NCBI RefSeq assembly: GCF_022267515.1
Contig: NZ_JAKFGB010000012.1
Location: 893,225 to 957,224, forward strand
Direction of reading: 5' to 3'
DNA length: 64,000 nt
Source of the DNA: Rubinisphaera margarita
GTDB lineage: Bacteria > Planctomycetota > Planctomycetia > Planctomycetales > Planctomycetaceae
Shown in pieces: positions 12,101-61,289 of this stretch (its first letter is position 1; every line of letters starts with the position of its first letter). Below the pieces are notes generated by a model. The model saw only the letters and a program-made list of their open reading frames with translations, was not told where the DNA came from and ran no database searches. The translations under genes and the position numbers were made by a program.

Positions 12101-12336
12101 ACAACCCCGGCGAGCGTGTTGCGATCGGTGATTGCCATCGCCCGGTAGCCAAGTTCGGCCGCTCGTTCGACCAGCTCATCCGGATGCGAGGCTCCCTCCA
12201 GAAACGAGAAGTTCGACTTGCACTGCAGTTCGGCAAACGGCAGCGCGCGGTCTTCCCGCGATCCGGCCCGCTGAGCATGAATCTCGGGGTGAACCTGTCG
12301 AGCTTTCTCAAAGGCGAGTTCGGGCATTCGGGGCAA
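9148..12336 (-). CDS. dnaE2: Error-prone DNA polymerase III alpha subunit DnaE2
   Basis: 1062 aa with PHP domain and polymerase core motifs. Operon context imuA-imuB-dnaE2. Confidence 0.9.
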   Translation of the reverse strand: MPRMPELAFEKARQVHPEIHAQRAGSREDRALPFAELQCKSNFSFLEGASHPDELVERAAELGYRAMAITDRNTLAGVVRAHVAAKQASLKLLIGAEITPVDAPPVVLLCMNRNGYSQLCRLITRGRTRAEKGSCELRFRDLTEFSADLIACVPLLARPTESTVNCSVDDLIRYRELYGDRCYGLAHRHLTDRDDYLLAEQLQTAKAAGVLPAASNDVYYHVPGRRVLQDVLTATRHRCAVADLGLRMFPNAERYLKSPQQMQSHFGSHPELIRRTAAIADCCQFSLDELRYEYPEELCPPGLTVSQYLNELTWQGAAERYPDGIPDNVRQLVEHELELISELHYEAYFLTVYDLVRFARSRDILCQGRGSAANSAVCYCLGVTSVDPARIDVLFERFISKERDEAPDIDIDFEHERREEVLQYIYEKYGRERAGMTATLITYRLKSAMRDVGKALGLSLDSIDRLAKNFERYNEVNKVGRRMEEAGLSPDSGLGQLIHRLVIDILGFPRHLSQHTGGMVMTNSPLCEIVPIENASMPGRTVVEWDKDDLDALGILKVDCLALGMLTAVRKCFDLLERHYQRPLTLATVPAEDPATYEMMQRADTIGVFQIESRAQMSMLPRLKPKEFYDLVIEVSLVRPGPIQGDMVHPYLRRRDGLEAVEYPSEEVRQVLHRTLGVPIFQEQAMKLAVVAAGFTPGEADQLRRAMGAWRKSGVMDAFHQKLSQGMQARGYSEEFAERLFNQIRGFGEYGFPESHAASFALLVYVSSWLKCHYPDVFLAAMLNSQPLGFYQPATLVRDAREHGVEIRRVDVNSSDWDCTLEQKPSARHRSVRLGFRMVSGLKQSEAEKIVAARGDRPYLSIDDVANRAGVSNSVLSRLARADAFGSLKLSRREALWESLPERFTQTLLESQSNDALPKALPGMAPLAEVVHDYRHTGLTLKRHPVSFIRSRLKQMKALPAAALETYPADRKVKVAGLILLRQRPGTAKGITFMTLEDETGITNLVVHPNTWERFRVTARTATAMMVRGILQRESSVVHVVVDRMWDLSEEFSRIGKSRDFS

Positions 12337-12496
12337 TCAGTGGTGCAGGTCAGGTATTTATAAGGATGGCCCAGAGATTCATCTCTGAGTGACGAAGTCA
12401 CAAGCGGTTTGTCTTCGATCTGTTTTCAGTCAGTCCAGGTACGTGATTGCCGGCCTTTGTTGCGGGCGCGGGACTTACAGCAACGAGAGTTTTGCC

Positions 12497-12628
12497 GGGT
12501 AGCCCCGGTTGCTCCGCTACCGGGGCCGACGCAGTCGGCAAGAGGTTCCAACGATCAATTCAAATTGAAGGCGTGTTGATGGACCTCTTGTGGCTTCGCC
12601 ACCCCGGTTGAATCAACCGGGGCTACCC
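12497..12628. repeat. Nested inverted-repeat (long imperfect hairpin) element in the imuB-dnaE2 spacer
   Basis: Outer IR GGGTAGCCCCGGTTG (12497-12511) pairs with CAACCGGGGCTACCC (12614-12628). Inner IR CAAGAGGTTCCA / TGGACCTCTTG. Central palindrome TCAATTCAAATTGA. Two local hairpins share CCCCGGTTG. Confidence 0.6.
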
Positions 12629-12738
12629 CTTTGGCATGATTCATAATGTGAATTCACGAAGAGCGGTGAAGACAAGCCTCCTGTTGCTGCGCAACACAGA
12701 GATGAATCTCTGTGCCATCCCTTCGTGTCCTGCGGGGA

Positions 12739-14256
12739 TTAATCAAAGCAGCCGTGTAAGTACCAGTCGCGTTGTTCCCTTCTTCGAAAGAGCCAGAATC
12801 GCTGGTGGGTCGTGGTTTCGACGCGGTAGTAATCGCGGCGGATGGCATCGTCCCGCCACCAGCCGGTTTCAAGTCGTTCGGGGCCCCAGGTGATCTCGGC
12901 GATGTGTTCCTGTTGATCCCACCAGAACCGCAACGGCGGACCGTTCGGGATCACGGAATTCACCCGGATGGCGATCGGCTCGGAGAACAGTGACAGCGGC
13001 CGTAGCGGGCGGGAGAAGAGGGATTCGTTCTTTCGCACCGCCATCGGAGGTTCCAGAGCCGGGGTGAAACTCACGCTCCGTTCGGGCTGGACGTCTTCGA
13101 CCAGTTCCGCTTTCAAGACCGCCTGATCGCCGAGACGCGTGGTGAGTCGGTTGATGAGTGTTTCGTACTCGCGGGTTTCGATCGTCGAATCGTCTTCGAA
13201 CAACGTGCGGCGACGAAAGCGGAGCGATGCAGTTTCCGCGGCTCGCAGCACAACGCGGTCAATCTCGACACGCAGCTGCATGGTCTCCAGCTTGAGAGCG
13301 ATCAGGTTCCACAGCTCCTGCTCGGCCAGTGTGGGGCGGATTGTGCCGAGAGTCAACTCGAGTACAGGTTCCTTCCCGTTAAACAGCTGAACCTGCAGTC
13401 GTAACAGGCCGTGCTGCTGCTTCTCCAGTTGAGCCAGCAAATCCTGAAGCACCCGTTTCAGCACAATCTCGATGAGATACTTCTCGGTGATCGGATACTC
13501 GAGAACTTCATCGGTCCAGACCGGTTCGGGCAACACTTCCGGAACGAGGACTTCGGTTCGGTGACCCTGGAACTGTTCGAGTCGCGCAGGAAGTTCCTCG
13601 CCAAACCGGGGCTTCAACGATTCTCGCGGCAGCCGGAGAATCTGGTCGATCTCTTTCAGATCAAACTCCCGCAGTCGAGCGGACAGAGCGTCCGAAAGGC
13701 GCAGCGCTTCCACCGGCAGTCGTGGTGAGGACTTCTGGGAATCGACGATCTGAAAACTGTTCGAGCGATGGACGCCGTAATGAGCCACGCCCCACGCCAT
13801 GCCAACCGTATCAGCAATGGCGATGCGGCCTGCGAGTCCACGATCGTTGAGGAACGTGATTAGCTGGCGACAGAACTCTCGCTCGCTGCCATACAGATGA
13901 ATGCAGCCGGTCAGATCGAACAGCAGGCTGTCGAGCGGAGGTGTTTCTTCAATGCCGACAATGGGGCTGAAGCACTGGCAGGCGATCGCCAGTCGGCGGA
14001 GCGCGTGGTAATCGCGAGCCGGACTGGCTTCGAGAATCTGCACCGGCTGCGACCAGCGAAGTTTGGCATCGGTGAGCGGCATGCCCGTGCGGATGCCTTC
14101 CCGGGCAAGATCGGCGGAAGTCTGAACGACCACCTCGCCAACGCGGGCCAGCTTCTCGAAGAACAGCAGCGGAGTTCGTTTATGCTCGGGCTTGTCCTGG
14201 CGGTAACATTGAATGGACCAGCGGGGGAGCCACAGGCAGGCGATGCGTCTTGTCAT
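12739..14256 (-). CDS. imuB: ImuB, Y-family polymerase-like component of the mutasome
   Basis: N-terminus MTRRIACLWLPRW matches the ImuB pattern. ~505 aa. Overlaps imuA by 77 nt. Confidence 0.85.
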   Translation of the reverse strand: MTRRIACLWLPRWSIQCYRQDKPEHKRTPLLFFEKLARVGEVVVQTSADLAREGIRTGMPLTDAKLRWSQPVQILEASPARDYHALRRLAIACQCFSPIVGIEETPPLDSLLFDLTGCIHLYGSEREFCRQLITFLNDRGLAGRIAIADTVGMAWGVAHYGVHRSNSFQIVDSQKSSPRLPVEALRLSDALSARLREFDLKEIDQILRLPRESLKPRFGEELPARLEQFQGHRTEVLVPEVLPEPVWTDEVLEYPITEKYLIEIVLKRVLQDLLAQLEKQQHGLLRLQVQLFNGKEPVLELTLGTIRPTLAEQELWNLIALKLETMQLRVEIDRVVLRAAETASLRFRRRTLFEDDSTIETREYETLINRLTTRLGDQAVLKAELVEDVQPERSVSFTPALEPPMAVRKNESLFSRPLRPLSLFSEPIAIRVNSVIPNGPPLRFWWDQQEHIAEITWGPERLETGWWRDDAIRRDYYRVETTTHQRFWLFRRREQRDWYLHGCFD

Positions 14257-18858: not shown

Positions 18859-20751
18859 CTAAAGATTTCCTGAAGCGATCCGACATGTGACTGATGTTCC
18901 CTGCTCCGGAGCCGACTCCACTGTCAGAATCCCACCGATGCGATTGGCACGATAGTTCATGATTCGCAACCCAAGCCCACCGTCCCTTGGGTTCTGGATC
19001 CCAACTCCATTGTCGATGACCGCCAGTTCGATCGCATCGTCCGATTGCTCGAGTCGAATGATGATTCGGGACGCCGCGGAATGTTTAATGGCATTGGTCG
19101 TGGCCTCTTCGACGATCCGGTACAGCTGATTCGCAACGATGTTGTCCGGAATCGGAACTGTCTCCGGACATTGAAATTCGCAGTCAATCCCGTGAAACTC
19201 CCGGATCCGGCGAGCGGTCGCCCCCAGCGCCGCCATGAGCCCCTGGGTATCGATATCAACCGGGTTTAGGCCGCGGCTCAGAAGCCGGATTTTGGTCAAG
19301 GCTTCGCTCACGCCTCGTGATATCTTCTCGGCAATTCTGATATGGCGATTTTCATCTTTGCGCAGAGCAAGCGTCAACGTTTCGGCCAGCATCGCCATTC
19401 CGGTCAGTTCCTGTCCGACGACATCGTGCAGGTCTTGTCCAATCCGTCGTTGTTCCTCGGCTGCAATTTCGAGAACTTCTCGCTCAAGACGTTGCCGCTC
19501 GGTCGTATCCTGGCCAGTGCAAAGCAGGGCAACGATCTGGCCCGTCCGAGATGTCATGGGGACGGCTTCCCACTCAACCAGCCGTCGCTCTCCGGAACGG
19601 GTAAGAAGCACAGGACTGAATGACTGAACCGTTTGGCCGTTGATGGCTGCGTAAAACCGCCGCCGGAAAGGCTCGCGATCCGCCTCCGGCAGGAAAATAT
19701 CGGCCCACTCTTCTCCTCGCGTCTCTTCCAGCGGCCATCCGGAGAGCTCTTCCAGAAATGAGTTGTACTGCACGATCGTCCCGTCCGGAGACAGAATGAG
19801 GATCACGCCCCGGCTCGTTGCGATGATGTTCTCATTCAACTGATGCTCGCGACGCAGGGCCTCTTCATTCTGCTTTCGCTCCGTCAGGTTTCGAACGATG
19901 CCTGTAAAGAGTTTCTTGCCGGGGACCTGGCCGATGGCAATCTCAGCCGGGAATGTTCTTCCGGTCTTATGACGCGCCGTTACTTCACGACCGATTCCGA
20001 TCACCCGGGCTTCCCCCGTTTCCAGGTAACGTCTGAGATATGAGTCGTGTTGCTCCCGGTCGGGCGAGGGCATAAGGATGCTTACGTTCTGGCCAAGTAA
20101 CTCCTGCAGGGAGTAGCCGAAAATGTCCTCCGTCGCGGCGTTGGCGTCCTGAATGATGCCTCGTTGATCAATTGTAATGATGGCGTCGGCCGACGAACTG
20201 AGAATCGATCGCAGCGTGTTCTCCACGGTCTGCTTTTCGGTCTCAACTTTCTCGTAGTTCGAAACATCTTTGAGCAGTTGGACAAAGTACTTCAGTGATC
20301 CATCCGTCGCTCGAATCGGGATCAGAGTGATCTCGTTCCAGAACAGACTACCATCTTTTCGATAGTTCCGCACAACAACGCGACAGTCAATTCCTCTTGC
20401 GACTGCGGCTCGCAGCGTCGTCAGAGATCCCTGATTGCCGTCGTCCGTTTGCAGAAATCGTGGATCACGGTCCAGCAGCTCTTCGACCGAATATCCTGTT
20501 AGTTCAGCAGCCGCCTGATTGGCAAAGATGACCGGACATTCCTCCCCACGCGGCGTCGTCACAAGTAGAGCAAATTCGATTGCATCCAGAGTCCTCAGGA
20601 GATCTTCGGGAGTCGAGATCGTTTCGTCGATCAGTCTGCAAAGCAGCTGAAGAAGAGTCTCAGCATTCGCCGCGGGGTCGGTCATCGCGATCCAGTCGAA
20701 ATTAGCAGGGCGCAGAATAAGTCCGCTCAGATTATAGGCGTCAGGCATCAT
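18859..20751 (-). CDS. Multi-PAS sensor histidine kinase (HisKA_3 + HATPase_c)
   Basis: Several PAS repeats, an H-box (LHDVVGQEL) and an ATPase G-boxes region near the C-terminus. Confidence 0.9.
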   Translation of the reverse strand: MMPDAYNLSGLILRPANFDWIAMTDPAANAETLLQLLCRLIDETISTPEDLLRTLDAIEFALLVTTPRGEECPVIFANQAAAELTGYSVEELLDRDPRFLQTDDGNQGSLTTLRAAVARGIDCRVVVRNYRKDGSLFWNEITLIPIRATDGSLKYFVQLLKDVSNYEKVETEKQTVENTLRSILSSSADAIITIDQRGIIQDANAATEDIFGYSLQELLGQNVSILMPSPDREQHDSYLRRYLETGEARVIGIGREVTARHKTGRTFPAEIAIGQVPGKKLFTGIVRNLTERKQNEEALRREHQLNENIIATSRGVILILSPDGTIVQYNSFLEELSGWPLEETRGEEWADIFLPEADREPFRRRFYAAINGQTVQSFSPVLLTRSGERRLVEWEAVPMTSRTGQIVALLCTGQDTTERQRLEREVLEIAAEEQRRIGQDLHDVVGQELTGMAMLAETLTLALRKDENRHIRIAEKISRGVSEALTKIRLLSRGLNPVDIDTQGLMAALGATARRIREFHGIDCEFQCPETVPIPDNIVANQLYRIVEEATTNAIKHSAASRIIIRLEQSDDAIELAVIDNGVGIQNPRDGGLGLRIMNYRANRIGGILTVESAPEQGTSVTCRIASGNL

Positions 20752-30020: not shown

Positions 30021-30097
30021 TTTCGGTTAGCTCAATTGGTCAGAGCATCAGGCTGTTAACCTGACTGTCGTGGGTTCGATTCCCATACCGATCGCCA
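30021..30097 (+). tRNA. tRNA-Asn (GUU) with two mismatches at the acceptor-stem terminus; CCA encoded
   Basis: D-arm GCTC-AATTGGTCA-GAGC. Anticodon loop CTGTTAA. T-arm GTGGG-TTCGATT-CCCAT. Acceptor TTTCGGT / ACCGATC pairs at only 5 of 7 positions. Confidence 0.65.
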
Positions 30098-38100: not shown

Positions 38101-38460
38101 ATGAACGCACTCTCATTCCGATTACTTAGCAGCCTGCTGGCGATCCCGCTGGCTTTCGCGTTTGTGTCGCCGGTCGAAGCTCAGGAGACGTACACCGAAG
38201 AGTACTACGACTCGTACTACGACGACGCTGACAATTACGACTACGACTACAACGACTACACCTGGAACGACTGGTGGGAAGACGATTACGAGTACGGCTA
38301 CTACGGCGATGATGACTACGCCTATGACGACGACTACTACGAAGACTACCGCGACGATGAGTACGGTTGGAACGACGACTGGTGGGAAGATGATTACGCC
38401 TACGCCGACGGGTACTACGACAACTACTACGACGGCGACACCTGGTGGGACTGGGAATAG
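38101..38460 (+). CDS. Secreted, extremely acidic Asp/Tyr/Trp-rich low-complexity protein
   Basis: AAGGAG Shine-Dalgarno sequence 7 nt before the ATG. Cleavable signal peptide (…PVEA/QE). The mature ~93 aa are almost entirely D, Y, W, E, N, G and show a two-fold ~33-aa repeat. Confidence 0.5.
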   Translation: MNALSFRLLSSLLAIPLAFAFVSPVEAQETYTEEYYDSYYDDADNYDYDYNDYTWNDWWEDDYEYGYYGDDDYAYDDDYYEDYRDDEYGWNDDWWEDDYAYADGYYDNYYDGDTWWDWE

Positions 38461-38518
38461 TCTCTGCCCCGTGTGCCAGAACGCTCCAATGACATCAAAA
38501 GCAAAAGGAATATCAACG

Positions 38519-39649
38519 ATGCTTCTACGTAATCCAAACCTTGTGGCCGCATTCGGCCTCTCCGCCCTGCTCGCCATGCCGGTTCATGCTCAGCAGGCTC
38601 CGCGCGAGCAGAATCGTGATCGCCAGAACGAGTCGAGCCAGCAGGAATCTCGGCCCGGCGATCAGCAGAACAGCGAGCGTCAGTCCGATCGCTTCGAGAA
38701 CCAGAACCGGGAGGACCGCGACAGCGAATCCCGAACCGACGAGAACCAGAATCAGCGACAGCTGCGCAATCAGCATCGTCAAAGCGAGAACGACAATCGC
38801 CGGCAAGGCTACACCGGTCAGCGACGATCGAACTTCCGTGGCGGTGAGATTGAAGGCTGGGTCACTGTCGGCACCGACTACGACAACGACGGCGTCTACG
38901 ACTCGCTCGAAACGATCTTCCTGATCGATTTGGAGAATGCACGTCGTCAGAGTCAGGCTCGCGCTCAGGAACATCAGCGCAGCCGTAATCAGAACGGTCA
39001 GCATCAGAGTTCGAAACGCCTTCAGGTGAAAGGGACGATTCAAAGTCTCTCCCAGAAGGAGATGATGAACTCAGAGAAGCCGAAAGTTGTCGCGAAGCTG
39101 AAAACCCAGGAAGGTCGAACCGCGACCGTCTGCCTCGGTTCGCAGGACAAAGTGAACCAGCTGAATCTGCAGCAGGGTGATCAGGTCCAGGCCCACGGCG
39201 TTCGCGCCACCTTCAACGGTAAATCGATGCTGATGGCGGAACGCGTTTCGGCCGGCGAGCAGACAATCACGAACCAGCTGCCGCGAAAGCAGGGGCTCAA
39301 CCGCTTTCAGGGCGAAGTCGTGAGCACACGACAGGCGAACTTCCGGAATCGCGAAGGCGAATTCGTGATCGCCACCGTTCGCACTGAGAAGCATGGCACC
39401 AAGGAAGTGAACCTCGGACATGCCAGCGAATTTGAGAATGTCGACATCAGCGAAGGAAAGCAGATCAAATTCCTCGCCGGTGAAGCACGGATGAACGGTC
39501 GCTCGGCTCTGATTGCTCAGGCAATTCGCATCGACGGTCAGACCATCGACGTCCGCGAGTCGACCAACCAGCAGATCACTAAGTCTGATCGCGGTTCCGA
39601 CTCGAAGAACCGTCAGTCCGAGGATCGGCAGACGACAAGTCGCCGATAA
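38519..39649 (+). CDS. Secreted protein with a Q/N/R/E/S/D-rich low-complexity N-terminal region and two tandem ~90-aa OB-fold-like repeats
   Basis: AAAGGA Shine-Dalgarno sequence before the ATG at 38519. Signal peptide MLLRNPNLVAAFGLSALLAMPVHA. The two repeats share a pattern of the form V...G..V...L...G.... Confidence 0.5.
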   Translation: MLLRNPNLVAAFGLSALLAMPVHAQQAPREQNRDRQNESSQQESRPGDQQNSERQSDRFENQNREDRDSESRTDENQNQRQLRNQHRQSENDNRRQGYTGQRRSNFRGGEIEGWVTVGTDYDNDGVYDSLETIFLIDLENARRQSQARAQEHQRSRNQNGQHQSSKRLQVKGTIQSLSQKEMMNSEKPKVVAKLKTQEGRTATVCLGSQDKVNQLNLQQGDQVQAHGVRATFNGKSMLMAERVSAGEQTITNQLPRKQGLNRFQGEVVSTRQANFRNREGEFVIATVRTEKHGTKEVNLGHASEFENVDISEGKQIKFLAGEARMNGRSALIAQAIRIDGQTIDVRESTNQQITKSDRGSDSKNRQSEDRQTTSRR

Positions 39650-39834: not shown

Positions 39835-41472
39835 TTACAGTTCGACGGCTTCGACTTCCTTCACGAAGCGGCTTTCGTCACCGGACAGGAATCCACTCAC
39901 GACGTTGAACACGGCGTCACTGAAGCCGCCGATGTTCAGGATGTCGCTGCGTTCTGGAGCCTGTGAGGTTCCGTACGGCTGGATGTCGATGCAGACCAGC
40001 TTTGGTCCCGTGATGTCGCCACCCTGGAGTCGCAGCTGATTCTTCACGAAGTCCTGCCATTCGGTCATCACTCCGGTTGACCCGTAAGCTCCGTATCCGA
40101 AGGCCTGTCCGTTGCGGATCCAGCTTTCGTTATCGCTGATCAGCACGCATCCTGCGAAACGTCGATTACGATAACGGCTGTTGGCTTCTCGCAGCGGGAT
40201 CGAACAATCGGTCCCTCCTCCGCCCATTTGGCCGAGCCGCTTCGACAGACTCAGGATCGAATCGGACGGATCGAGCCGTGCGTCGTACGCGATGGTATCG
40301 AACGGCACGAGCACACTGTCCGGGTTTCGACGCAGGATCGCCGCAGCGAACAGAGCCGCCACATCGACACATCGCACGGCCGAAGTTCCCCCTCCACCGC
40401 GGTATCCGGTGACCGGACAGTTCATCGATCCCGAGGTATCGAGTCCGATTACGACCGGTCCCGGCAGTTCCGGGATGTTTCCGCAGGCAATCTCGGCTGC
40501 TCGGTGCAGCGCATCCCGGATCTTATGCGGCAACTCCGTCGACGCGTTCAGGTAGGCGGCCAGGTACTGGTACGGGAACTGTCGCGAACGTCGGATCTCC
40601 GTCGCATCGGCCACGCGGCCGGCCACGTAATCGACCATCTCACGATCTTCCAGAACCTGATGACGCAGGAGCGTATTCAGGTTCATTCGCAATGCCTGCG
40701 GCCCCATCTGTCGGGCGATGGCCTTCCAGACCTTCGGCCCCCGAGCGGCATCGGCCAGGAGATCCCAACGCACGTTCAGATCAGCCGCGACTGCAGCCTG
40801 ATCCTTCTCGCCGGTGATGCGTCGATACTTGATCAACTGCTTCAGGTCCTGCGGGAGATCGGCTTCGGTCGCCGGAGCCCACTTCTCGACGTCCTTATCG
40901 GTCAACCATCCGAACAGAGCCCGCCGCGCGTTGTCTCGCGGAGTTGGCCGAGCCAGCCGCAACACGTCGCGCAGACTTGGATCGTTCCCGATCGAAGCCG
41001 ACAGCAACTTGCTCACGGAAGCCTCGTTCAGCCAGCGCTGGAAAGCCCGCTGCAAACTCGACGACAGGCTGTTCCGACCAAACTGACCGGAACGGACCAT
41101 CTGGAACAGCGTCCGCAGGACGCGGCCGTTATCGATCACCCGATCAAAGACCTGGTGCATCAATGCGGTATCCCGAGTCGACAGCGAAGCCACCAGGGCA
41201 GCCGGCATGTCCTTCATGAAAGCCCGTTCCCGCGAATACACGGCGAGCTTTGCCAGGAAGACATTGTCATCGACCTCGTCGATCAGAGACCGCAAGGTAT
41301 CGAGCTGCGTCTGGGCGTTGGCGTAGAAGACTCCGTTAAAGCACCCGGTTGCAGCGAGCTGAGCGAGAGCCTGCTTGGCCGAGAACTTGTAAGCGGCGCC
41401 GCCCGCTTCGTTGATCGAGTTCGTACGCGGCAACAGATTCTTGAAGTTGGAGAAGAGGGACTTGTTGGCCAT
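39835..41472 (-). CDS. rsr: Ro60 ortholog Rsr (TROVE domain + vWA/MIDAS)
   Basis: N-terminal TROVE-region sequence typical of bacterial Rsr. C-terminal vWA with the motif IGLDTSGSM. Confidence 0.85.
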
Positions 41473-41604
41473 AACCGGCCTCCTTTCGACCTGAGTGGAC
41501 GAAGTGCGCAGACTCCCGTGTCATCAGATCACGGAATCAAACGTCAGCCTGCGCGAGCAGTCGACTCAGCAGCATCGGCTCGGTTCTTCGAGCCTTGTGA
41601 AAAT

Positions 41605-41708
41605 TCACTCGACGAAGGCATGAAGCAGAGTTACCGACCAGAGTCGATCCCGGCCGGGCAGGAGTTGAACCTGCGGAGTCCATGTATTCCGCTTCCGCAG
41701 TCGAGTGA
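41605..41708 (-). ncRNA. Y-RNA-like / tRNA-like structured element immediately upstream of rsr
   Basis: A 9-bp terminal helix (TCACTCGAC / GTCGAGTGA) encloses a canonical T-arm (GCAGG-TTCAACT-CCTGC) and further hairpins. No anticodon arm or acceptor stem. Confidence 0.35.
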
Positions 41709-41739
41709 GGTCCCCGACGAGGGGTTTGCCAGAGCATTT

Positions 41740-41936
41740 GTTCTTTGCGCGTCTACTGTTTCCGCCACGGCGTCCGAAGACGCCGGCAGGATTCGCACCT
41801 GCACGATCTTGCGATCACAAAGTCCTGATGGAGTCCAACATTCAGTCGGGGAATGTCAAAGCATGATCGACGAAGTGGTGGTTCAGAGTCGTTACGGTGC
41901 TCTACCTTTGAGCTACGGTGCGTCGTAAGAAAAAAT
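41740..41936 (-). ncRNA. Structured RNA region carrying isolated tRNA-like modules
   Basis: On the minus strand: a D-arm-like TAGCTCAAAGGTAGAGCA; a cUUCGg tetraloop hairpin (GGCGTC-TTCG-GACGCC); and a degenerate T-arm GCAGG-TGCGAAT-CCTGC. Confidence 0.3.
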
Positions 41937-42010
41937 GGCACCGACGGGAATCGAACCCGCAACCTCCGGATCCCAAATCATGTACTCCGAGCCGGCAGTC
42001 GATCATGTCT
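41936..42010 (-). ncRNA. Degenerate tRNA-like element (T-arm plus 3' acceptor strand only, followed by a T-tract)
   Basis: GCGGG-TTCGATT-CCCGT-CGGTGCC-A-TTTTTT. No matching 5' acceptor strand upstream; CGGTGC can pair with a downstream GCACCG. Confidence 0.3.
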
Positions 42011-42211
42011 GCTATGTCTTCAAAAGTGGCTCGACGAAGAGGTGCCGAGAAGATGCGTTCTTCACGCAATCCTTAACAGGGATGTAATCCCGGCTGGCAG
42101 TCGAACCACTGGAGCAGTTCACTCTCGTAACCGTTCCGTCCGCGAAAGGAGCAGCGTTTCAGGCGAAACAAAGCTCATTCGCGGACATCCGGTAAAGCGA
42201 TCCGCTTTAAT

Positions 42212-42282
42212 ACCCCGCCAAGGAATCGAACCTCGTCCGACTGATTCGAAGTCAGTCATGCATCCATCACACCCGCAGGGCT
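42212..42282 (-). tRNA. tRNA-Arg (UCG), 71 nt, no encoded CCA
   Basis: Acceptor GCCCTGC / GCGGGGT (two G-U pairs). D-arm GTGT-GATGGAT-GCAT. Anticodon arm ACTGA-CTTCGAA-TCAGT. T-arm CGAGG-TTCGATT-CCTTG. Confidence 0.6.
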
Positions 42283-42291
42283 TGCAGAGTT

Positions 42292-42624
42292 TCAGTTTTT
42301 CGTTGTTCTCCAATACTCGTCGGCGTTCTCCAGAGCCGCCCGCATCAGACGGGATCCTTCGATGTTGGCCGAGTGAATTGTCCAGGTTAGTTGCGATAAC
42401 TCGCCGTAGTAGGCTCGTTCTTCAATCCATTTCGCGACGTCGTAACCGGTTTGCGTTGTTCCCAGATCGTGATCCAGTGACACCCAGGCGACGTTGTTCG
42501 ACTTGAGCCGACTGATCGCCGCATCTGCAGTCCTCACCCAGATCATGCCCGGTTCCGCACCGAACAGTTCCTGGATCTTCCGATTGTTCGGATCCCGCTC
42601 GTCATCGAGCCAGAGATTGATCAT
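42292..42624 (-). CDS. Small receiver (REC)-fold-like protein embedded in the tRNA array; possibly a cyclic-phosphate-processing receiver-like domain as seen in RNA-repair neighbourhoods
   Basis: AAAGGA Shine-Dalgarno sequence 5 nt before the ATG. Alternating beta/alpha pattern with acidic residues at predicted strand ends: MINLWLDDER (strand 1) and VAWVSLDHDLG (strand 3). Confidence 0.5.
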   Translation of the reverse strand: MINLWLDDERDPNNRKIQELFGAEPGMIWVRTADAAISRLKSNNVAWVSLDHDLGTTQTGYDVAKWIEERAYYGELSQLTWTIHSANIEGSRLMRAALENADEYWRTTKN

Positions 42625-42651
42625 GCAGTCCTTTCTTCAGGTCGCGAGAAA

Positions 42652-42721
42652 CACGAGCGTGAGGAGTCGAACCCCATGCGTTCGCTTTGGAGGCGAACTG
42701 CTCTCCCAGGAGCACACTCGT
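42652..42721 (-). tRNA. tRNA-Trp (CCA), 70 nt, slightly irregular (short D-loop, missing nt 9)
   Basis: Acceptor ACGAGTG / CGCTCGT. D-arm GCTC-CTGGGA-GAGC. Anticodon loop CTCCAAA is identical to bacterial tRNA-Trp. T-arm TGGGG-TTCGACT-CCTCA. Confidence 0.55.
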
Positions 42722-42725
42722 CCAA

Positions 42726-42799
42726 TGGCTTTGGTGGGATTCGAACCCACAGCATCGCTGTGTCTGAGACAACGTGGTCTACCGATTGCCTACAAAGCC
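42726..42799 (-). tRNA. tRNA-like element with a CAG anticodon loop (Leu-like) but an unpaired D-stem and no long variable arm; probable pseudo-tRNA
   Basis: Perfect acceptor GGCTTTG / CAAAGCC and T-arm GTGGG-TTCGAAT-CCCAC. Anticodon arm GTTGT-CTCAGAC-ACAGC. No D-stem pairing can be found. Confidence 0.4.
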
Positions 42800-42831
42800 G
42801 TTTCGTGCCCACTGTTGTTGAGGGACATCAG

Positions 42832-42906
42832 TTGCGGCGGCAGGAATCGAACCTGCGTCAGAACGGTTCAGAGCCGCCCGCCCGTACCAGCACGAGCACC
42901 ACCGCA
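42832..42906 (-). tRNA. tRNA-Gln (CUG), 75 nt
   Basis: Acceptor TGCGGTG / CGCCGCA. D-arm GCTC-(10 nt)-GGGC. Anticodon arm GGCGG-CTCTGAA-CCGTT. T-arm GCAGG-TTCGATT-CCTGC. Confidence 0.55.
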
Positions 42907-42918
42907 TCATCTCTTCAA

Positions 42919-42989
42919 AGCGCCCAGCGGGAGTCGAACCCGCACTCCCGCCATGGCAAGGCAGCAGGCTACCGCTACATCATGGGCGC
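42919..42989 (-). tRNA. tRNA-Gly (GCC), 71 nt
   Basis: Acceptor GCGCCCA / TGGGCGC. D-arm ATGT-AGCGGTA-GCCT (one mismatch). Anticodon arm CTGCC-TTGCCAT-GGCGG. T-arm GCGGG-TTCGACT-CCCGC. Confidence 0.55.
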
Positions 42990-43013
42990 GATTCAGAGGC
43001 TTCGCCTCCTGAA

Positions 43014-43086
43014 TGGGATCGGACGGATTCGAACCGTCACCGTTCCGGTTAAGAGCCGGACATGCCGCCGCTAACACCTCAATCCC
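43014..43086 (-). tRNA. tRNA-Lys (CUU), 73 nt
   Basis: Acceptor GGGATTG / CGATCCC. D-arm GTGT-TAGCGGCG-GCAT. Anticodon arm TCCGG-CTCTTAA-CCGGA. T-arm GACGG-TTCGAAT-CCGTC. Confidence 0.65.
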
Positions 43087-43110
43087 AGGTTGACCTTCTT
43101 CGTAATAAAG

Positions 43111-43183
43111 TCGGGATGGCCGGACTCGAACCGACGATCGCGTGCTCCCAGGGCACGTGGGGTAGCCGCTCCCCGACATCCCG
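43111..43183 (-). tRNA. tRNA-Pro (UGG), 73 nt (C at position 33)
   Basis: Acceptor CGGGATG / CATCCCG. D-arm GGGG-AGCGGCTA-CCCC. Anticodon arm CGTGC-CCTGGGA-GCACG. T-arm GTCGG-TTCGAGT-CCGGC. Confidence 0.6.
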
Positions 43184-43397
43184 TTAACTGCTTTCACTTA
43201 ATGGAGCTGTAAACTCCGAGTAACTCTCGATCGAAAGCGGTTGAGTTCTTTGCTGAGTGCCTGCCGGCATTAGCCTGTCCGCGTTCGATCGGAGCCGGGC
43301 GGAATGCATGTCCGAAGAAGGCGAAGAAACGTCGATACGAATTGCGGATGAAGGTTGTCACGGTCGTCGATTCCGAAATGGGCTGACTGTTTACTGA

Positions 43398-43470
43398 TGA
43401 CCCGTGTGGGATTCGAACCCAACCTGACCAGCTTGAAAGGCTGGTGACCTCACCAGAAGTCGAACGGGCC
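43398..43470 (-). tRNA. tRNA-Glu (UUC), 73 nt
   Basis: Acceptor GGCCCGT / ACGGGTC. D-arm GACT-TCTGGTGA-GGTC. Anticodon arm CCAGC-CTTTCAA-GCTGG. T-arm TTGGG-TTCGAAT-CCCAC. Confidence 0.65.
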
Positions 43471-43500: not shown

Positions 43501-43531
43501 TAAAAAAAGCCCGGTGCGTGTGACACCGGGC
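43501..43531 (-). terminator. Minus-strand intrinsic terminator hairpin 27 nt upstream of the tRNA array
   Basis: Stem GCCCGGTG-(7 nt)-CACCGGGC followed by TTTTTTT on the minus strand. Confidence 0.55.
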
Positions 43532-43985
43532 TGACAGGAAGTCTCCAGTCAGAGCATCGGTCACAAACGCAAATCCTCACTCGGGCCGCCGGGCTCGCGG
43601 CGAAGGCGTTCCATCTGCATGGTGGGGTTCTCAAGAATCATCGAACTGAGTTCTGCCTGTCAAAAAGTGTTAGCCGTTGTCATGGTGACTGGTCTTCACC
43701 AGCTTCTGCACTACAGACGCCAGTCAGCGGGAAAAGGTTCGTCAGGAAGTGTGAGATTTTCGGAAAAGTTGGGATGCGCGAAACCAGCCACGGTCGATCA
43801 CCGACGTCATCGGTCTCAAGGGAATCCCTTCCCCGGCGAGCCGCTTCCTGTCGGTGACGCGACTGAGACGTGCATGTCTGAGTCATTCTGTGTGGCTCCA
43901 CACCGCGCAGCTTCCCCAGCTGAAACTCCTCTCGGATAGCGAAGCCGATTTGACGAGGTGGCTTAGCCACTGTACCATCTCCGCT

Positions 43986-57076: not shown

Positions 57077-58551
57077 CAGGCGAGAATCTCCGGGATCAGT
57101 TTACCTTCGACGTTGGTCAGTCGGCGTTGAATCCCGTTATGTTCGAAACTCAGAGCCTCGTAGTCCAGTCCGAGAAGGTGGAGAATGGTAGCGTTGAAGT
57201 GATACAGCGGATGGACGTTCTCGATCGCCTTCTGACCGAATTCATCGGTGGTGCCGTGACTCACCCCAGGCTTCACGCCCGCTCCCGTCATCCAGCAGGT
57301 GAATCCGTCCGGGTTGTGATCGCGTCCTTTGGCTCCCTTCTGAAAGAACGGCATCCGTCCGAACTCGGTACACCAGACAACGAGCGTATCTTCCAGCAGG
57401 CCGCGCTGCTTCAGGTCGCGGATCAGAGCGGCAGCCGGTTGATCGAGAACTTCGGCATGAACGTCGTACTGTTCTTTCAGGGCATTATGGCCGTCCCAGT
57501 TCAGCTTGCCGCCACTGGCGTAAGCCCCATTGAAGAGCTGGACAAAGCGAACACCCCGTTCAATGAGCCGGCGGGCCAGAATGCAGTTTCGGGCAAACCC
57601 GGCTTTATTCTTGTTCTCGACGTCGTCGGCACCGTAGAGCTTGAGAATATGTTCCGGCTCAGTGCTCAGATCGCTGATTTCAGGCACGCTTAACTGCATG
57701 CGGGCGGCCAACTCGTAGCTTGCGATTCGTGCTGCAAGCTTGCCGTCGCTGGGATGCTGCTCGAGATGGCGTTCGTTCATCCGCTGAAGCAACGACCGGG
57801 CCGCCTTGTCGGCTTTGGACGACACTCCGGGAGCGGCCAGATGCCGCACTGGATCGCTGGCCGTCATTGTTGTGCCCTGGAACGCCGCGGGCAAGAAGCC
57901 AGCTCCCCAGTTGTTCGAACCGTTCTGGGGAACGCCGCGTGGATCGGGGATCGCGATGTAGGCCGGCAGTTCCTGACTTTCGCTTCCGAGCGCATACGTC
58001 ACCCAGGAGCCGAGGCTGGGAAAGCCGTCGAGCACGAAACCGGTGGAGAGAAAGTTCTCGGCCGGACCGTGTGTGTTCGAGGTGCTCGTGAGAGAGTGCA
58101 CGAACGCGAAGTCGTCCGTCAGTTCGGCCAGGTGAGGAATCATGTCGCTGACCCACTTCCCGGTTTCGCCCCGCTGGCGGAACTCGTACTGCGGACGGGC
58201 CAGATTCCCCGCCGGTCCCTGGAAGGTGACAGCCGGTCCTCCGGGAAGCGGTTTGTTATCCCATTTGATCAGCTCTGGCTTGTAGTCCCAGGTTTCGAGC
58301 TGACTGACGGCTCCCGCGCAAAAGATGACAACCACATTCTTCGCCCGAGCCGGGAAATGCGGCTGTCGCGGCGCATAGGGCCGGGCAGGATCAATATGCG
58401 GCGTCTTTACTGTGGAGCCGAGGAGTTGATCGGATCCGAGCAGCTGTGTCAGTGCGATTGATCCGAGTGCCGTCGCGCTATTGGAGAGAAAGCTCCGACG
58501 ATCGAGCAGGCTACGGCCAGCTGTCGAAAGATGTTCTGCGTCAGATGTCAT
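57076..58551 (-). CDS. DUF1501 protein, Tat-secreted
   Basis: RRSFLS Tat motif. Paralog of 33148-34560. Confidence 0.85.
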
Positions 58552-61289
58552 GGCATCACCAGGAATTCATTGCAATTGAAAAGGACGCGGCACAAAACCG
58601 GCAGGCCGTATTCACGAACGACTTCTTCGGCATCGTCGAGCTCAACAGCCTTCGGTGAGCGGGCAAACGCCAGTTCGTAACAGCGGACGATCTGATCCCG
58701 AACGTCTTCGCTAACTTCCTTCCGCACGCGGTCAGACATCGCATTGGCTCGGTCGAGCGTAAACTTGCTGTTGAACAGATTCAGCGCCTGAATGGGGGTC
58801 GTGCTTTCCCGTCGCCGGGCCGCACTTTGCCCGCCATCCGGACAGTCAAAGGCTCCGAAGACGGCTTCTCGTTCGCGGCGAACCTTGTGCGCATAGATCA
58901 TCCGCCGCAGTCCGTCCTTCGGGAACGTTTCCACCGGTTCAAACCCGGTCAGTCCGCCCCGCTTGTCGAAGAGATTGTATCCGCGGCCGTACATTTTGAG
59001 ATTCAACTCGCCACTCACGGCCAGCATCGAATCGCGAATCGCTTCGCCTTCCAGCCGCCGTGAAGGGAATCGCCAGAGGAGACGGACATCGGCGTCCTGA
59101 TCGACGGCTGCGGGATTGTCGACCGCCGAAGACTGCCGGTACGTCTGGCTGAGGACAATCATCCGATGCATCTGCTTGATGCTCCAGCCGTTCTCGACAA
59201 ACGTCGTCGCGAGCCAGTCGAGCAGTTCTGGATGCGTCGGCATCGCCCCATTGCGGCCAAAATCGCTCGATGTTTCGACCAGCCCAATGCCAAAGTGCCC
59301 CTGCCAGATCCGATTGACCATCACGCGGGCCGTCAGAGGATTCTCGGGTCGCGCGATCCAGTCTGCGAGCGCCATCCGCCGTTTCTGTTCGGCTGTATCG
59401 ACGGGAAGTTCAAGGGAGTCGAAGGAACTGAGAACTGCAGCCGGGACAACCTCGCCGGGCTGCTCGGGATCGCCGCGATTCAGCAGGTAAATTGTGTCGG
59501 GCTCGCGGAACTTGCCCGCGAAGACCATCTGTCCGCCCTCCGAAGTTGCAATCCTCTTTCTCAGTTGCTTTTTCTCGTCAAGCAAAGCCTTCGCGGCGAT
59601 CTGTTCTTCGACTGGCAGGCCGTCCGTAGAGAACGCCGGTTTCTTCGCTGATCCATCGAACTTCTGCCGATCACTGGCATCTGCGACGGGCAGCCAGGTC
59701 CCGTCACCGGGATCAATTTCGATGCGGTAGTCGATCGCCAGCCGATCGTCGTACTTTCCGAGTCGATCCCGTCCCCAGACAATGCGATCGATAATCACAT
59801 CGGTCGGAAACTCGAGAATGACCCAGCCGCCTCCCTTCTCGTTCGACATCCAGCTGCTCGAGTTTCCGTACTTCCCGTCGGTGAGATAGGTCAGGTCATG
59901 GCGATTGGCGACCTGAATTTCCCCGGATGCGGTCACTTTCGTTTCGGCGGAAGCAAGAGCGACGTTGGTTCCCTCAGGATCGAAGACTTCCAACTCGTCG
60001 ATACACGGTTCGAGACGGTTGGTTGCCAACACGGTGAAACGGAGTCGTCGAGCGGAAGTGCGGCGGATGCGTTCGACGTTTGTCCGGGCATTAACCATCT
60101 GGCGCGGAGTTCCGTTGCCGACAAACGGAGTCAACGTCGCCAGTTCCGCCTCCACCTGTTTCAATCGGGATTTCAGCTTCGCCAGTTCACGGCGTTCCTG
60201 TTCTGCTTCCGGAGTATTGAGCGGGCGATCGGCGTACTCCACTCCAGCGACAAAAGCCTGCATGGCATAGTAGTCACGGGCGCTGATCGGATCGAACTTA
60301 TGATCGTGGCAGCGGGCACAGCCGACGCTCAGGCCGAGGAATGTCTGCCCGATGTTGTTGACGATCTCGTCCAGTGAGTCCTGTCGAGCCAGCCGCTTCG
60401 ACGGTTCATCCTTGCCGATCTGTCCGGGCAACAGAACCGATGCCGTGACCAGAAAGCCGGTGGCGGCATCTTCCCCCAGAGCATCGCCGACAATCTGTTC
60501 GCGGATGAAGCGATCGTAAGGGACGTCCCTGTTGAAGGCTTCAATGACATAGTCACGATAGGGCCAGGCATTGGGACGTTCGGTGTTGACCTCAAAGCCG
60601 TGCGTGTCGGCGTAGCGAACGACATCCAGCCAGTGCTGTGCCCAGCGCTCTCCGTAACGAGGAGACGCCAGCAGACGTTCGACAACCGCTTCGTAGTCGG
60701 GTTGCTTCCTGAACTCGGCAACTTCTTCGGGGGTCGGCGGCAAGCCCGTCAGGTCGAACGTCACGCGGCGAAGCCAGTCGACCGGACTGGCCGGGGCGGC
60801 TCGCTTCAGCCCTGCCTCTTCCAGTCGACGATCGATAAAGTCGTCGATCGTCTGCTCGACCTCGTCGTCTGCCTGGACGGGCTTGAAGCTCCAATGGTCC
60901 ATGCGATCAGCCAGCTCGACCGTATCCACGCCGTCCGGCCAGACAGCTCCCTCGTCGATCCATCTCGTCAGTATCGCGATCTCTTCTTCCGGCAGTCGTT
61001 CGCCCGGCGGCATCAGCTCGTCTTCGTCGTCGGTTTGAACGAAGTGAATCAGCGGGCTCTCATCCGGCTTGCCGGCGACGATGTCAGGCCCGTGATTGTC
61101 GCCCCCTTTGAAGGCCGCCGATTTCACATCGAGCCTTAGCCCGGACTCGGCTTCTTCTCCACTGTGGCAGTCGTAACAGTGCGCCTCGAAGATTGGTCGC
61201 ACATCGCGAACAAAATCGATCGGGGCGGCGCGAAGATTCCCCGACGTAGCGAGGATCGACAGAAACAGCAGTCCAATGTAATTGCGCAT
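58548..61289 (-). CDS. PSD1 family protein (PSCyt1 + DUF1549 + DUF1553) with a discoidin-like insert
   Basis: Signal peptide. CYDCHS motif. Paralog of 34605-37472, but with a different inserted domain. Confidence 0.85.

Follow-up and report, generated by a model that had tools for sequence, protein, structure and literature searches.

We analysed a 64,000-nucleotide (nt) stretch of the Rubinisphaera margarita genome (contig NZ_JAKFGB010000012.1, positions 893,225 to 957,224; hereafter, the window). On its minus strand, the window carries an island of eight tRNA genes, Y-like RNAs, and rsr, which encodes an ortholog of Ro60. Between two of the tRNA genes lies a short open reading frame (ORF) that encodes a stand-alone cREC protein. 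(cREC is the cyclic-phosphate-processing receiver, PF20274 in Pfam.) Along the minus strand, the order is tRNA-Glu, -Pro, -Lys, -Gly, -Gln, -Leu, and -Trp, then cREC, tRNA-Arg, about 740 nt of non-coding DNA, and finally rsr. All eight tRNA genes are co-oriented and they fit within 1.26 kb. The elements of the island are as follows (aa is short for amino acids):

42726..43470, minus strand: six co-oriented tRNA genes (ARAGORN), for Glu(UUC), Pro(UGG), Lys(CUU), Gly(GCC), Gln(CUG), and Leu(CAG)
42652..42721, minus strand: tRNA-Trp(CCA) (ARAGORN; Rfam tRNA model, 31 bits)
42629..42634, minus strand: Shine-Dalgarno-like AAAGGA (sequence inspection)
42292..42624, minus strand: cREC coding sequence (PF20274, cyclic-phosphate-processing receiver), 110 aa, ATG start
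42211..42281, minus strand: tRNA-Arg(UCG) (ARAGORN; Rfam, 41.8 bits)
41473..42119, minus strand: conserved non-coding stretch between tRNA-Arg and rsr, over 93% identical to the corresponding region of the related locus L001, with four T-arm-like motifs
42023-42110, minus strand: weak YrlB-like match (Rfam)
41867..41990, minus strand: YrlA-like Y RNA with a tRNA-like domain (Rfam RF02553, 47.6 bits, E 2e-9, full-length)
41603-41707, minus strand: weak YrlA-like match (Rfam)
39835..41472, minus strand: rsr, Ro60 ortholog, the last gene of the island (Pfam TROVE and vWA_Ro60; phrog_850, "RNA-binding protein"; 100% identity with the TROVE protein of R. margarita)

The ORF at 42292..42624 is a genuine gene. 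Its minus-strand translation reads MINLWLDDERDPNN...VSLDHDLG...WTIHSANIEG.... Between it and the 94%-identical ortholog in L001 there are 20 synonymous and 7 non-synonymous differences, and the ratio of the non-synonymous to the synonymous rate (dN/dS) is 0.08, which indicates strong purifying selection. A word-indexed search found 396 homologs at E<=1e-3, and an exhaustive search found 6162 clusters at 50% identity. The match to Pfam, the hundreds of homologs, and the low dN/dS exclude a chance ORF. Two plus-strand ORFs (41853-42506 and 42494-43012) were discarded: they overlap cREC and cross the tRNA and YrlA genes, and nothing supports them.

An initial annotation, which was made from the sequence alone, had described a small gene inside a tRNA array, on the same strand and beside rsr, and the ARAGORN and Pfam results and the ORF list bear this out. 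It had also described a Shine-Dalgarno sequence and an ATG start, and we read both from the minus strand: AAAGGA is separated from the ATG (42624-42622) by a 4-nt spacer, CTGC. The AAAGGA is kept in L001 and not in L014, a more distant planctomycete locus, and because L014 lacks it we regard it as weak evidence. As for the spacing, the stop codon of cREC does lie 10 nt from tRNA-Arg(UCG), and the distance from tRNA-Trp is 27 nt instead of the 28 nt that had been given.

The protein matches the entire PF20274 (cREC_REC) profile (positions 1-88 of 88) with 89.2 bits, as compared to a gathering score of 27, and with E 3e-25; it also matches phrog_1479 with E 7e-25. It is a bona fide stand-alone cREC protein, which places it in a family already known from computational work. 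(The only match in NCBIfam was to BcsC, which we judged to be spurious.) Iyer et al. defined the cRec/cREC domain in 2021 through comparative genomics (PMC7824862) and returned to it in 2022 (PMC9503650). According to these studies, cREC is a divergent kind of receiver and never occurs together with histidine kinases; its links are to RNA ligases and to enzymes that process nicotinamide adenine dinucleotide (NAD) or ADP-ribose (ADPr); and it occurs mostly in phages and prophages, including up to 18% of jumbo phages (PMC7824862, PMC9503650). Its predicted role, which is computational only and is based on linkage to RNA ligases, Sir2, Nudix, and 2H, is to resolve 2',3'-cyclic phosphate ends of RNA or else ADP-ribose 1''-2'' cyclic phosphate (ADPr>p) (PMC7824862, PMC9503650). 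The 2H phosphoesterases (LigT/ThpR-type) have the same predicted reaction, the opening of 2',3'-cyclic phosphate or of ADPr>p, and are found in the same kinds of phage RNA-repair neighbourhoods (PMC9503650). The two families have unrelated folds, and the activity of 2H is experimentally established, whereas that of cREC is predicted. tRNA arrays or clusters go unmentioned for cREC in PMC7824862.

From the sequence, the initial annotation had guessed a receiver fold, with alternating beta strands and alpha helices and with acidic residues at the ends of strands 1 and 3 (LWLDDER and VSLDHDLG). The type of fold was guessed correctly, and the family turns out to be PF20274, whose published name is cRec/cREC; we did not find the annotation's term, CPR. 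The profile search that the annotation had proposed gave the full-length match to PF20274, and the proposed structure prediction gave a confident receiver-like Rossmannoid fold in which the alternation and the acidic strand ends are confirmed. The AlphaFold2 model has a predicted local distance difference test (pLDDT) score of 96.3 and a predicted template modelling (pTM) score of 0.89. Its elements are b1 2-6, a1 15-21, b2 28-30, a2 33-40, b3 45-50, a3 60-72, b4 80-83, and a4 88-109, which is four beta/alpha units as compared to five in CheY, and the lysine of beta5 is absent. Across 47 aligned homologs, W5, L6, D7, D8, R10, P12, W29, S49, D51, H52, D53, L54, G60, and H84 are invariant and N87 is nearly so. 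D7 and D8 directly follow strand 1; D51-H52-D53 follow strand 3; and H84-S85-x-N87 follow strand 4. Because there are four beta/alpha units, with the conserved residues at the strand ends, the model describes cREC as a truncated receiver fold without the beta5 lysine, with a receiver-like acidic pocket (D7, D8, D51, and D53) that is accompanied by additional histidine and arginine residues (the invariant R10, H52, and H84) and by the nearly invariant N87.

Classical receivers (PF00072; for example CheY, DivK, and the REC domain of RpfC) share with cREC the flavodoxin-like parallel beta/alpha fold, the acidic pair after beta1, and the aspartate after beta3. Membership in that class calls for a profile match, a (beta/alpha)5 fold, a threonine or serine after beta4, and a lysine after beta5, and cREC falls outside it: it has four units, no beta5 lysine, extra invariant histidine and arginine residues, and no histidine kinase as a partner, and it has no match to PF00072 (Response_reg) even at E<=1. 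An alignment to CheY with hhalign was not significant (probability 1.4%), and it placed D51 in register with D57 of CheY. Our sequence search of the PDB found no solved relative of cREC, only response regulators at E of about 0.2-1.

Could the protein nevertheless be a conventional single-domain response regulator of the CheY type, which is phosphorylated by a histidine kinase? Its fold and its acidic pocket do resemble those of CheY, and the window encodes a histidine kinase (PAS-HisKA_3, 18859-20751). However, that kinase, which is the nearest one, is 21 kb away and is directly adjoined by a 218-aa ORF that may be its own response regulator. There is no histidine kinase within 5 kb on either side of cREC, an interval that holds rsr, a GntR regulator, and a GFO oxidoreductase, and none is adjacent to cREC in any of the relatives' loci that we examined. 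Together with the reported absence of any association with histidine kinases (PMC7824862, PMC9503650), the lack of a PF00072 match, and the four-unit fold with its missing lysine, this essentially excludes a CheY-like regulator.

In phages, relatives of cREC lie in operons with RNA ligases and in tRNA arrays. Escherichia phage FV3 (rV5-like) has an operon of Rnl1 RNA ligase, cREC (FV3_00076), Sir2, and MazG with overlapping stop and start codons, and the jumbo phage Hallingskeid of Erwinia has RNA ligase, Sir2, Nudix, and cREC. Phages GAP32 and CBB encode fusions of Nudix to cREC. The phage proteins (PF20274, phrog_1479; FV3 and Hallingskeid) belong to the same family as the protein in the window, likewise stand alone with a length of about 110 aa, and share the motifs WLDDxR, (S/F)DHDLG, and H(S/T)xN with it, at about 30-38% identity. 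Their operons combine the Rnl1 ligase with Sir2 and MazG, or a ligase with Sir2 and Nudix, whereas the island in the window is chromosomal and holds tRNAs, Y RNA, and Ro60. In T5-like phages (Demerecviridae), cREC lies between tRNA genes; examples are p053 of Pectobacterium phage DU_PP_V, whose cREC protein is matched by 352 phage records, and Proteus phages VTCCBPA139 and M4H10_20. As in the window, the T5-like gene shares its strand with a dense tRNA array, and a few tens of nt separate it from the tRNAs on either side. Unlike the window, these are lytic phage genomes with no Ro60 or Y RNA nearby, the flanking tRNAs are for Met and Gly instead of Trp and Arg, and the cREC proteins are about 36-38% identical to ours.

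The Nudix-cREC fusions, and the Nudix gene adjacent to cREC in Hallingskeid, fit with another explanation, which is that cREC acts on soluble molecules derived from NAD+ or ADP-ribose, or on cyclic nucleotides (for example, on immune signals of the cyclic ADP-ribose (cADPR) type or on ADPr>p), as part of an NAD-centred conflict between virus and host. The position among tRNAs would then merely reflect the phage accessory-gene region from which cREC came. Indeed, the first proposal of Iyer et al. was that cREC processes cADPr or 2'-3' cyclic nucleotides, with links to Macro, NADAR, Nudix, and WYL (PMC7824862). In the jumbo-phage-like locus L017, an Apyc1-like anti-Pycsar gene is one gene away from cREC. 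Also, many stand-alone chromosomal copies of cREC have no RNA genes nearby. On the other side, the phage operons pair cREC with tRNA-type RNA ligases, by overlapping stop and start codons, and embedding among tRNAs recurs across unrelated lineages. PADLOC gave no match for cREC, Ro60, or the neighbouring ORFs. We also scanned 30 ORFs of the window with Pfam, comprising 17 of the 18 non-overlapping ORFs that reach 300 aa and 13 others (a 913-aa ORF at 58548-61289 and most ORFs of 200-300 aa lie outside this set), and found no Sir2, Nudix, 2H, or Macro gene among them. The island itself also has no NAD-metabolism gene. We consider a soluble substrate of this kind to be unlikely, although it is the main rival to a role at RNA ends.

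Among planctomycetes, the order tRNA-Trp, cREC, tRNA-Arg(UCG) is found in the window and in L001, L109, and L014. L001 and L109 are close relatives (their cREC proteins are 92-94% identical to that in the window). In L014, cREC is 78% identical and lies inside an array of 23 tRNAs with an HNH endonuclease; synonymous divergence (dS) between L014 and the window is saturated, yet the order of these three genes has been kept. L002 retains tRNA-Trp and cREC, and L012 has cREC, tRNA-Cys, and tRNA-Thr. The tRNA-Trp genes upstream of cREC in L001, L002, and L014 differ in their anticodon-stem sequences. In L112 (216-2056), which represents a second planctomycete lineage with both genes, the order is cREC, tRNA-Arg(GCG), tRNA-Cys, a YrlA-like RNA (41 bits), and rsr, with cREC 70% identical and Ro60 66% identical to those of the window. 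We looked for Ro60 near the homologs of cREC and found it only in L001 and L109, which are loci of the same species as the window, and in L112.

Compared to the window, L001 and L109 have an additional insert of 1.75 kb with a 266-aa ORF. This ORF (L001 4202-5002, and also in L109) and a 286-aa counterpart in L014 (6256-7116) are on the strand of the array, between tRNAs, and upstream of tRNA-Trp and cREC. They are 55% identical to each other (L001 versus L014), are absent from the window, and have no match in Pfam, PHROG, or PADLOC.

At the other end of the island, the YrlA-like RNA scores below the Rfam gathering score (47.6 versus 69 bits). Chen et al. 2014 (PMC4201824) defined Ro60/Y-RNA modules by matches with E<5e-5 within 4 kb of rsr; the YrlA-like RNA, with E 2e-9 and 395 nt upstream of rsr, is well within both limits. 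The four T-arm-like motifs and the weak YrlB-like and YrlA-like matches suggest that there are up to three or four Y-like RNAs between tRNA-Arg and rsr. YrlA-like matches are found at the same position in L112, L172, L173, and L174. The rsr-yrlBA-rtcBA operon of Salmonella is similar only in this part, where a tRNA-like RNA of the YrlA type immediately precedes the Ro60 ortholog on its strand; the shared theme is a response to damaged tRNA (PMC7790460, PMC4201824). The window differs from it in having a tRNA array and cREC in place of RtcB, RtcA, and RtcR. Since neither RtcB nor RtcA was found among the ORFs scanned, the island is not of the Rtc operon type (rtcBA/rtcR).

We also sampled other planctomycete rsr loci (Ro60 at 67-77% identity). 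L173 (77-7650) has 39 co-oriented tRNAs, two YrlA-like RNAs, and rsr; L174 (147-7617) has at least 17 tRNAs, an HNH gene, an RNA ligase (PF09414), two YrlA-like RNAs, and rsr. L172 shows just the YrlA-like match, and L171 and L168 have no tRNAs. Overall, a tRNA array lies upstream of the Y RNAs and rsr in 4 of the 7 lineages sampled. The eight tRNAs of the window are in exactly the same order as tRNAs #1, 3, 7, 9, 15, 24, 34, and 37 of L173. The chance that eight items would fall in one given order is 1/8!, or about 2.5e-5, which argues that the window's array derives from the long array seen in L173 by reduction, with the order of the remaining tRNAs kept.

The protein genes that are embedded in these arrays vary by lineage and include cREC, RNA ligase, HNH, DUF4291, the 266-286-aa ORF, and a 128-aa ORF; tRNA islands of this kind carry several interchangeable cargo genes, and cREC is one among them. 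(The DUF4291 protein is at 1400-1999 of L173 and the RNA ligase, PF09414, is at 3052-3834 of L174.) The 128-aa ORF of L173 (4347-4733) is directly upstream of tRNA-Arg(UCG), which is the position of cREC in the window, and it has no match in Pfam or PHROG. The safest statement is that a phage-type tRNA island, which in Planctomycetes is physically joined to Y RNAs and Ro60, carries cREC as cargo.

In a long tRNA array (L-array), dozens of tRNA genes, about 20 at the least, are densely packed in one orientation. With 8 tRNAs, which is fewer than 20, the array in the window is below this size. In L-arrays, which are horizontally transferred, and in phage tRNA islands, the tRNA genes are likewise dense and co-oriented, and genes for HNH homing endonucleases and small ORFs are embedded among them (PMC8421152; L014 and L174 are examples). 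By comparison, the array in the window is reduced to 8 tRNAs, has no HNH gene, and is in an ordinary chromosomal setting without flanking repeats: we searched for att-like direct repeats on either side of the island and found none. The tRNA islands of Myxococcus phage Mx1 (L175) and Streptomyces phage Blueeyedbeauty (L176) resemble the island in the window in carrying Ro60 beside tRNAs. These islands also hold HNH endonucleases, a peptidyl-tRNA hydrolase, and a SLOG-domain protein. Homologs of Ro60 are found in 98 phage records, mostly from actinophages.

What might cREC do in this setting? The reading that we favour is that cREC heals RNA ends and is expressed along with the spare tRNAs and the Ro60/Y-RNA particle, and we would put the chance that this is correct at about even. 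The co-oriented island would be transcribed as a single precursor that is punctuated by tRNAs, and RNase P, together with 3'-end processing of the flanking tRNAs, would free a short cREC mRNA. cREC would be a small phosphoesterase that opens or removes the 2',3'-cyclic phosphate ends of tRNAs or tRNA-like RNAs that had been cut by metal-independent (anticodon-type) nucleases. The by-product ADP-ribose 1''-2'' cyclic phosphate would be an equally possible substrate. This end-healing step would complement the spare tRNAs and the quality-control particle formed by Ro60 and Y RNA. We favour end-healing at cyclic-phosphate RNA ends because of the operons with tRNA-type ligases and the tRNA arrays, which are two independent recurrent contexts that point to tRNA, and because of the aspartate pocket with its histidine and arginine, which in the model is compatible with phosphoryl chemistry.

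On the minus strand from tRNA-Glu to rsr, we found no terminator-like site between the elements. rsr is followed by a convergent gene with a terminator, and the array is preceded by the divergent GntR gene. Just upstream of tRNA-Glu (43470), there is a terminator-like GC-rich hairpin with a T run (43508-43532, minus strand); it may act as an attenuator, may mark where an unannotated small RNA ends, or may have arisen by chance.

Several observations weigh against end-healing by cREC as part of a tRNA and Ro60 unit. A sigma-70 scan of the minus strand found no promoter. The 30 ORFs that we scanned with Pfam include no RtcB or RtcA, and neither an RNA ligase nor a polynucleotide kinase. The neighbours of array-embedded cREC in viruses are heterogeneous (a glycosyltransferase, DNA ligase, and calcineurin-like phosphoesterases in Pfam), and no consistent partner emerged from the Pfam scans of these neighbours. 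Other Ro60 loci lack cREC: L168, L171 to L174, and phages Mx1 and Blueeyedbeauty have none, and searching the cREC-less Ro60 loci with the cREC profile revealed no hidden copy. Across 120 non-redundant cREC loci, a same-strand tRNA lies within 100 nt in 9, within 500 nt in 17, and within the retrieved flank in 24, so that proximity to tRNA is a recurrent minority context of cREC (about 14% within 500 nt, a figure without a matched baseline). The family was described as "experimentally uncharacterized" in 2022 (PMC9503650), and our search of the literature from 2016 onwards found no experimental follow-up beyond the computational work of Iyer et al.

The tRNA regions of phages are dumping grounds for small accessory ORFs, so the adjacency of cREC and tRNAs may reflect shared descent instead of shared function. 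Furthermore, many close homologs (57-79% identity) stand alone in stable housekeeping neighbourhoods without any RNA-repair context. These include an arrangement of UvrA-like, cREC (often as a tandem pair), ornithine decarboxylase, and YchF; holA-like, cREC, and carB; ArsR-SdpI and cREC; and L110. The initial annotation had named homologs outside of RNA-repair contexts as an outcome that would speak against its proposal, and in part this is what our survey of neighbourhoods found. That survey did find RNA-repair or tRNA contexts for the family, in the RNA ligase operons of phages, in the tRNA arrays of T5-like phages, and in the cREC-tRNA-tRNA-YrlA-rsr order of L112; neither RtcB, which the annotation had mentioned, nor an RNA ligase was found among the ORFs of the window that were scanned. 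A role in RNA end-processing or repair, as it had proposed, is plausible, but "dedicated" was too strong a word because of the stand-alone homologs, the lack of an identified RtcB or ligase, and the tRNA arrays with Ro60 that have no cREC.

The stand-alone copies, many of which have no adjacent enzymatic partner, also bear on the question of whether cREC is an enzyme at all. It could instead be a non-catalytic pseudo-receiver that binds a ligand or RNA (such as a nucleotide or tRNA fragments that end in a cyclic phosphate) and thereby modulates a partner, which might be Ro60 with polynucleotide phosphorylase (PNPase), a ligase, or some processing enzyme. Domains with a receiver fold typically serve as switches, cREC is very small (110 aa) and has no fifth beta/alpha unit, and tandem pairs of paralogs are compatible with heterodimeric binders. 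Such pairs occur in L003-L006 and L015 (for example, L003 5679-5996 and 6001-6354), which are Schlesneria-like planctomycetes, and they lie in a conserved neighbourhood of UvrA-like, ornithine decarboxylase, and YchF genes; in L004 (3724-4353), the tandem paralogs are merged into a single 209-aa ORF. In contrast, an invariant set of aspartate, histidine, and arginine at the position of the receiver active site is more typical of catalysis, and the fusions of cREC to Nudix and the like suggest that the fused enzymes act in sequence. We think it improbable that cREC is non-catalytic, and the end-healing phosphoesterase remains our preferred reading.

Bacterial tRNA-Leu normally has a long variable arm. 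The tRNA-Leu(CAG) of the window (42726-42799, minus strand) is 74 nt and lacks one, as compared to 85 nt for the versions in L014 and L173, and it is separated from tRNA-Trp by 4 nt. The tRNAs of the array score 31-53 bits with the Rfam tRNA model, versus 58 bits for an isolated tRNA-Asn (30021-30097). The other genes of the window are ordinary for a planctomycete. A gene for a DnaE2-like alpha subunit of DNA polymerase III adjoins an ImuB-like gene of the IMS family (9148-14256, minus strand), and this looks like an SOS mutagenesis ("mutasome") cassette. The gene convergent on rsr encodes a 495-aa ORF (38162-39649) with degenerate direct repeats at its 5' end (38186-38439, plus strand). Its 500-aa counterpart in L001 has a threonine-rich, low-complexity N-terminus and is overlapped, in another frame, by a 121-aa ORF that is rich in aspartate, tyrosine, and tryptophan.

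The gene itself is of a known kind, and the more interesting by-product of this analysis is a recurrent architecture of tRNA array, Y RNAs, and rsr with variable RNA-repair cargo. We found no description of the linkage between the array, Y RNA, and rsr in the searchable literature. It suggests that bacterial Ro60 and arrays of spare tRNAs belong to a single phage-like toolkit, which would maintain the pool of tRNAs when it is attacked. A bolder proposal, which we regard as rather doubtful, is that the planctomycete tRNA island (array, Y-like RNAs, and Ro60) is one phage-derived, horizontally shuffled unit for responding to tRNA damage, with interchangeable cargo for end repair, and that cREC is the enzyme that opens the 2',3'-cyclic phosphate ends left on tRNAs or Y RNAs by nucleases. 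The cargo of this unit would be cREC in the window and RNA ligase, DUF4291, or unknown ORFs in its relatives. If this is true, then bacterial Ro60 and Y RNA would be tied directly to the damage and replacement of tRNA. With about 6,000 clusters at 50% identity, the cREC family is large, and this locus, together with the comparison across relatives, sharpens the hypothesis that its role concerns tRNA. The practical value of the locus is that it offers concrete substrates and mutants for testing cREC, and, if the proposal holds, it would be the first cellular, genetically approachable system for assigning a biochemical function to this family.

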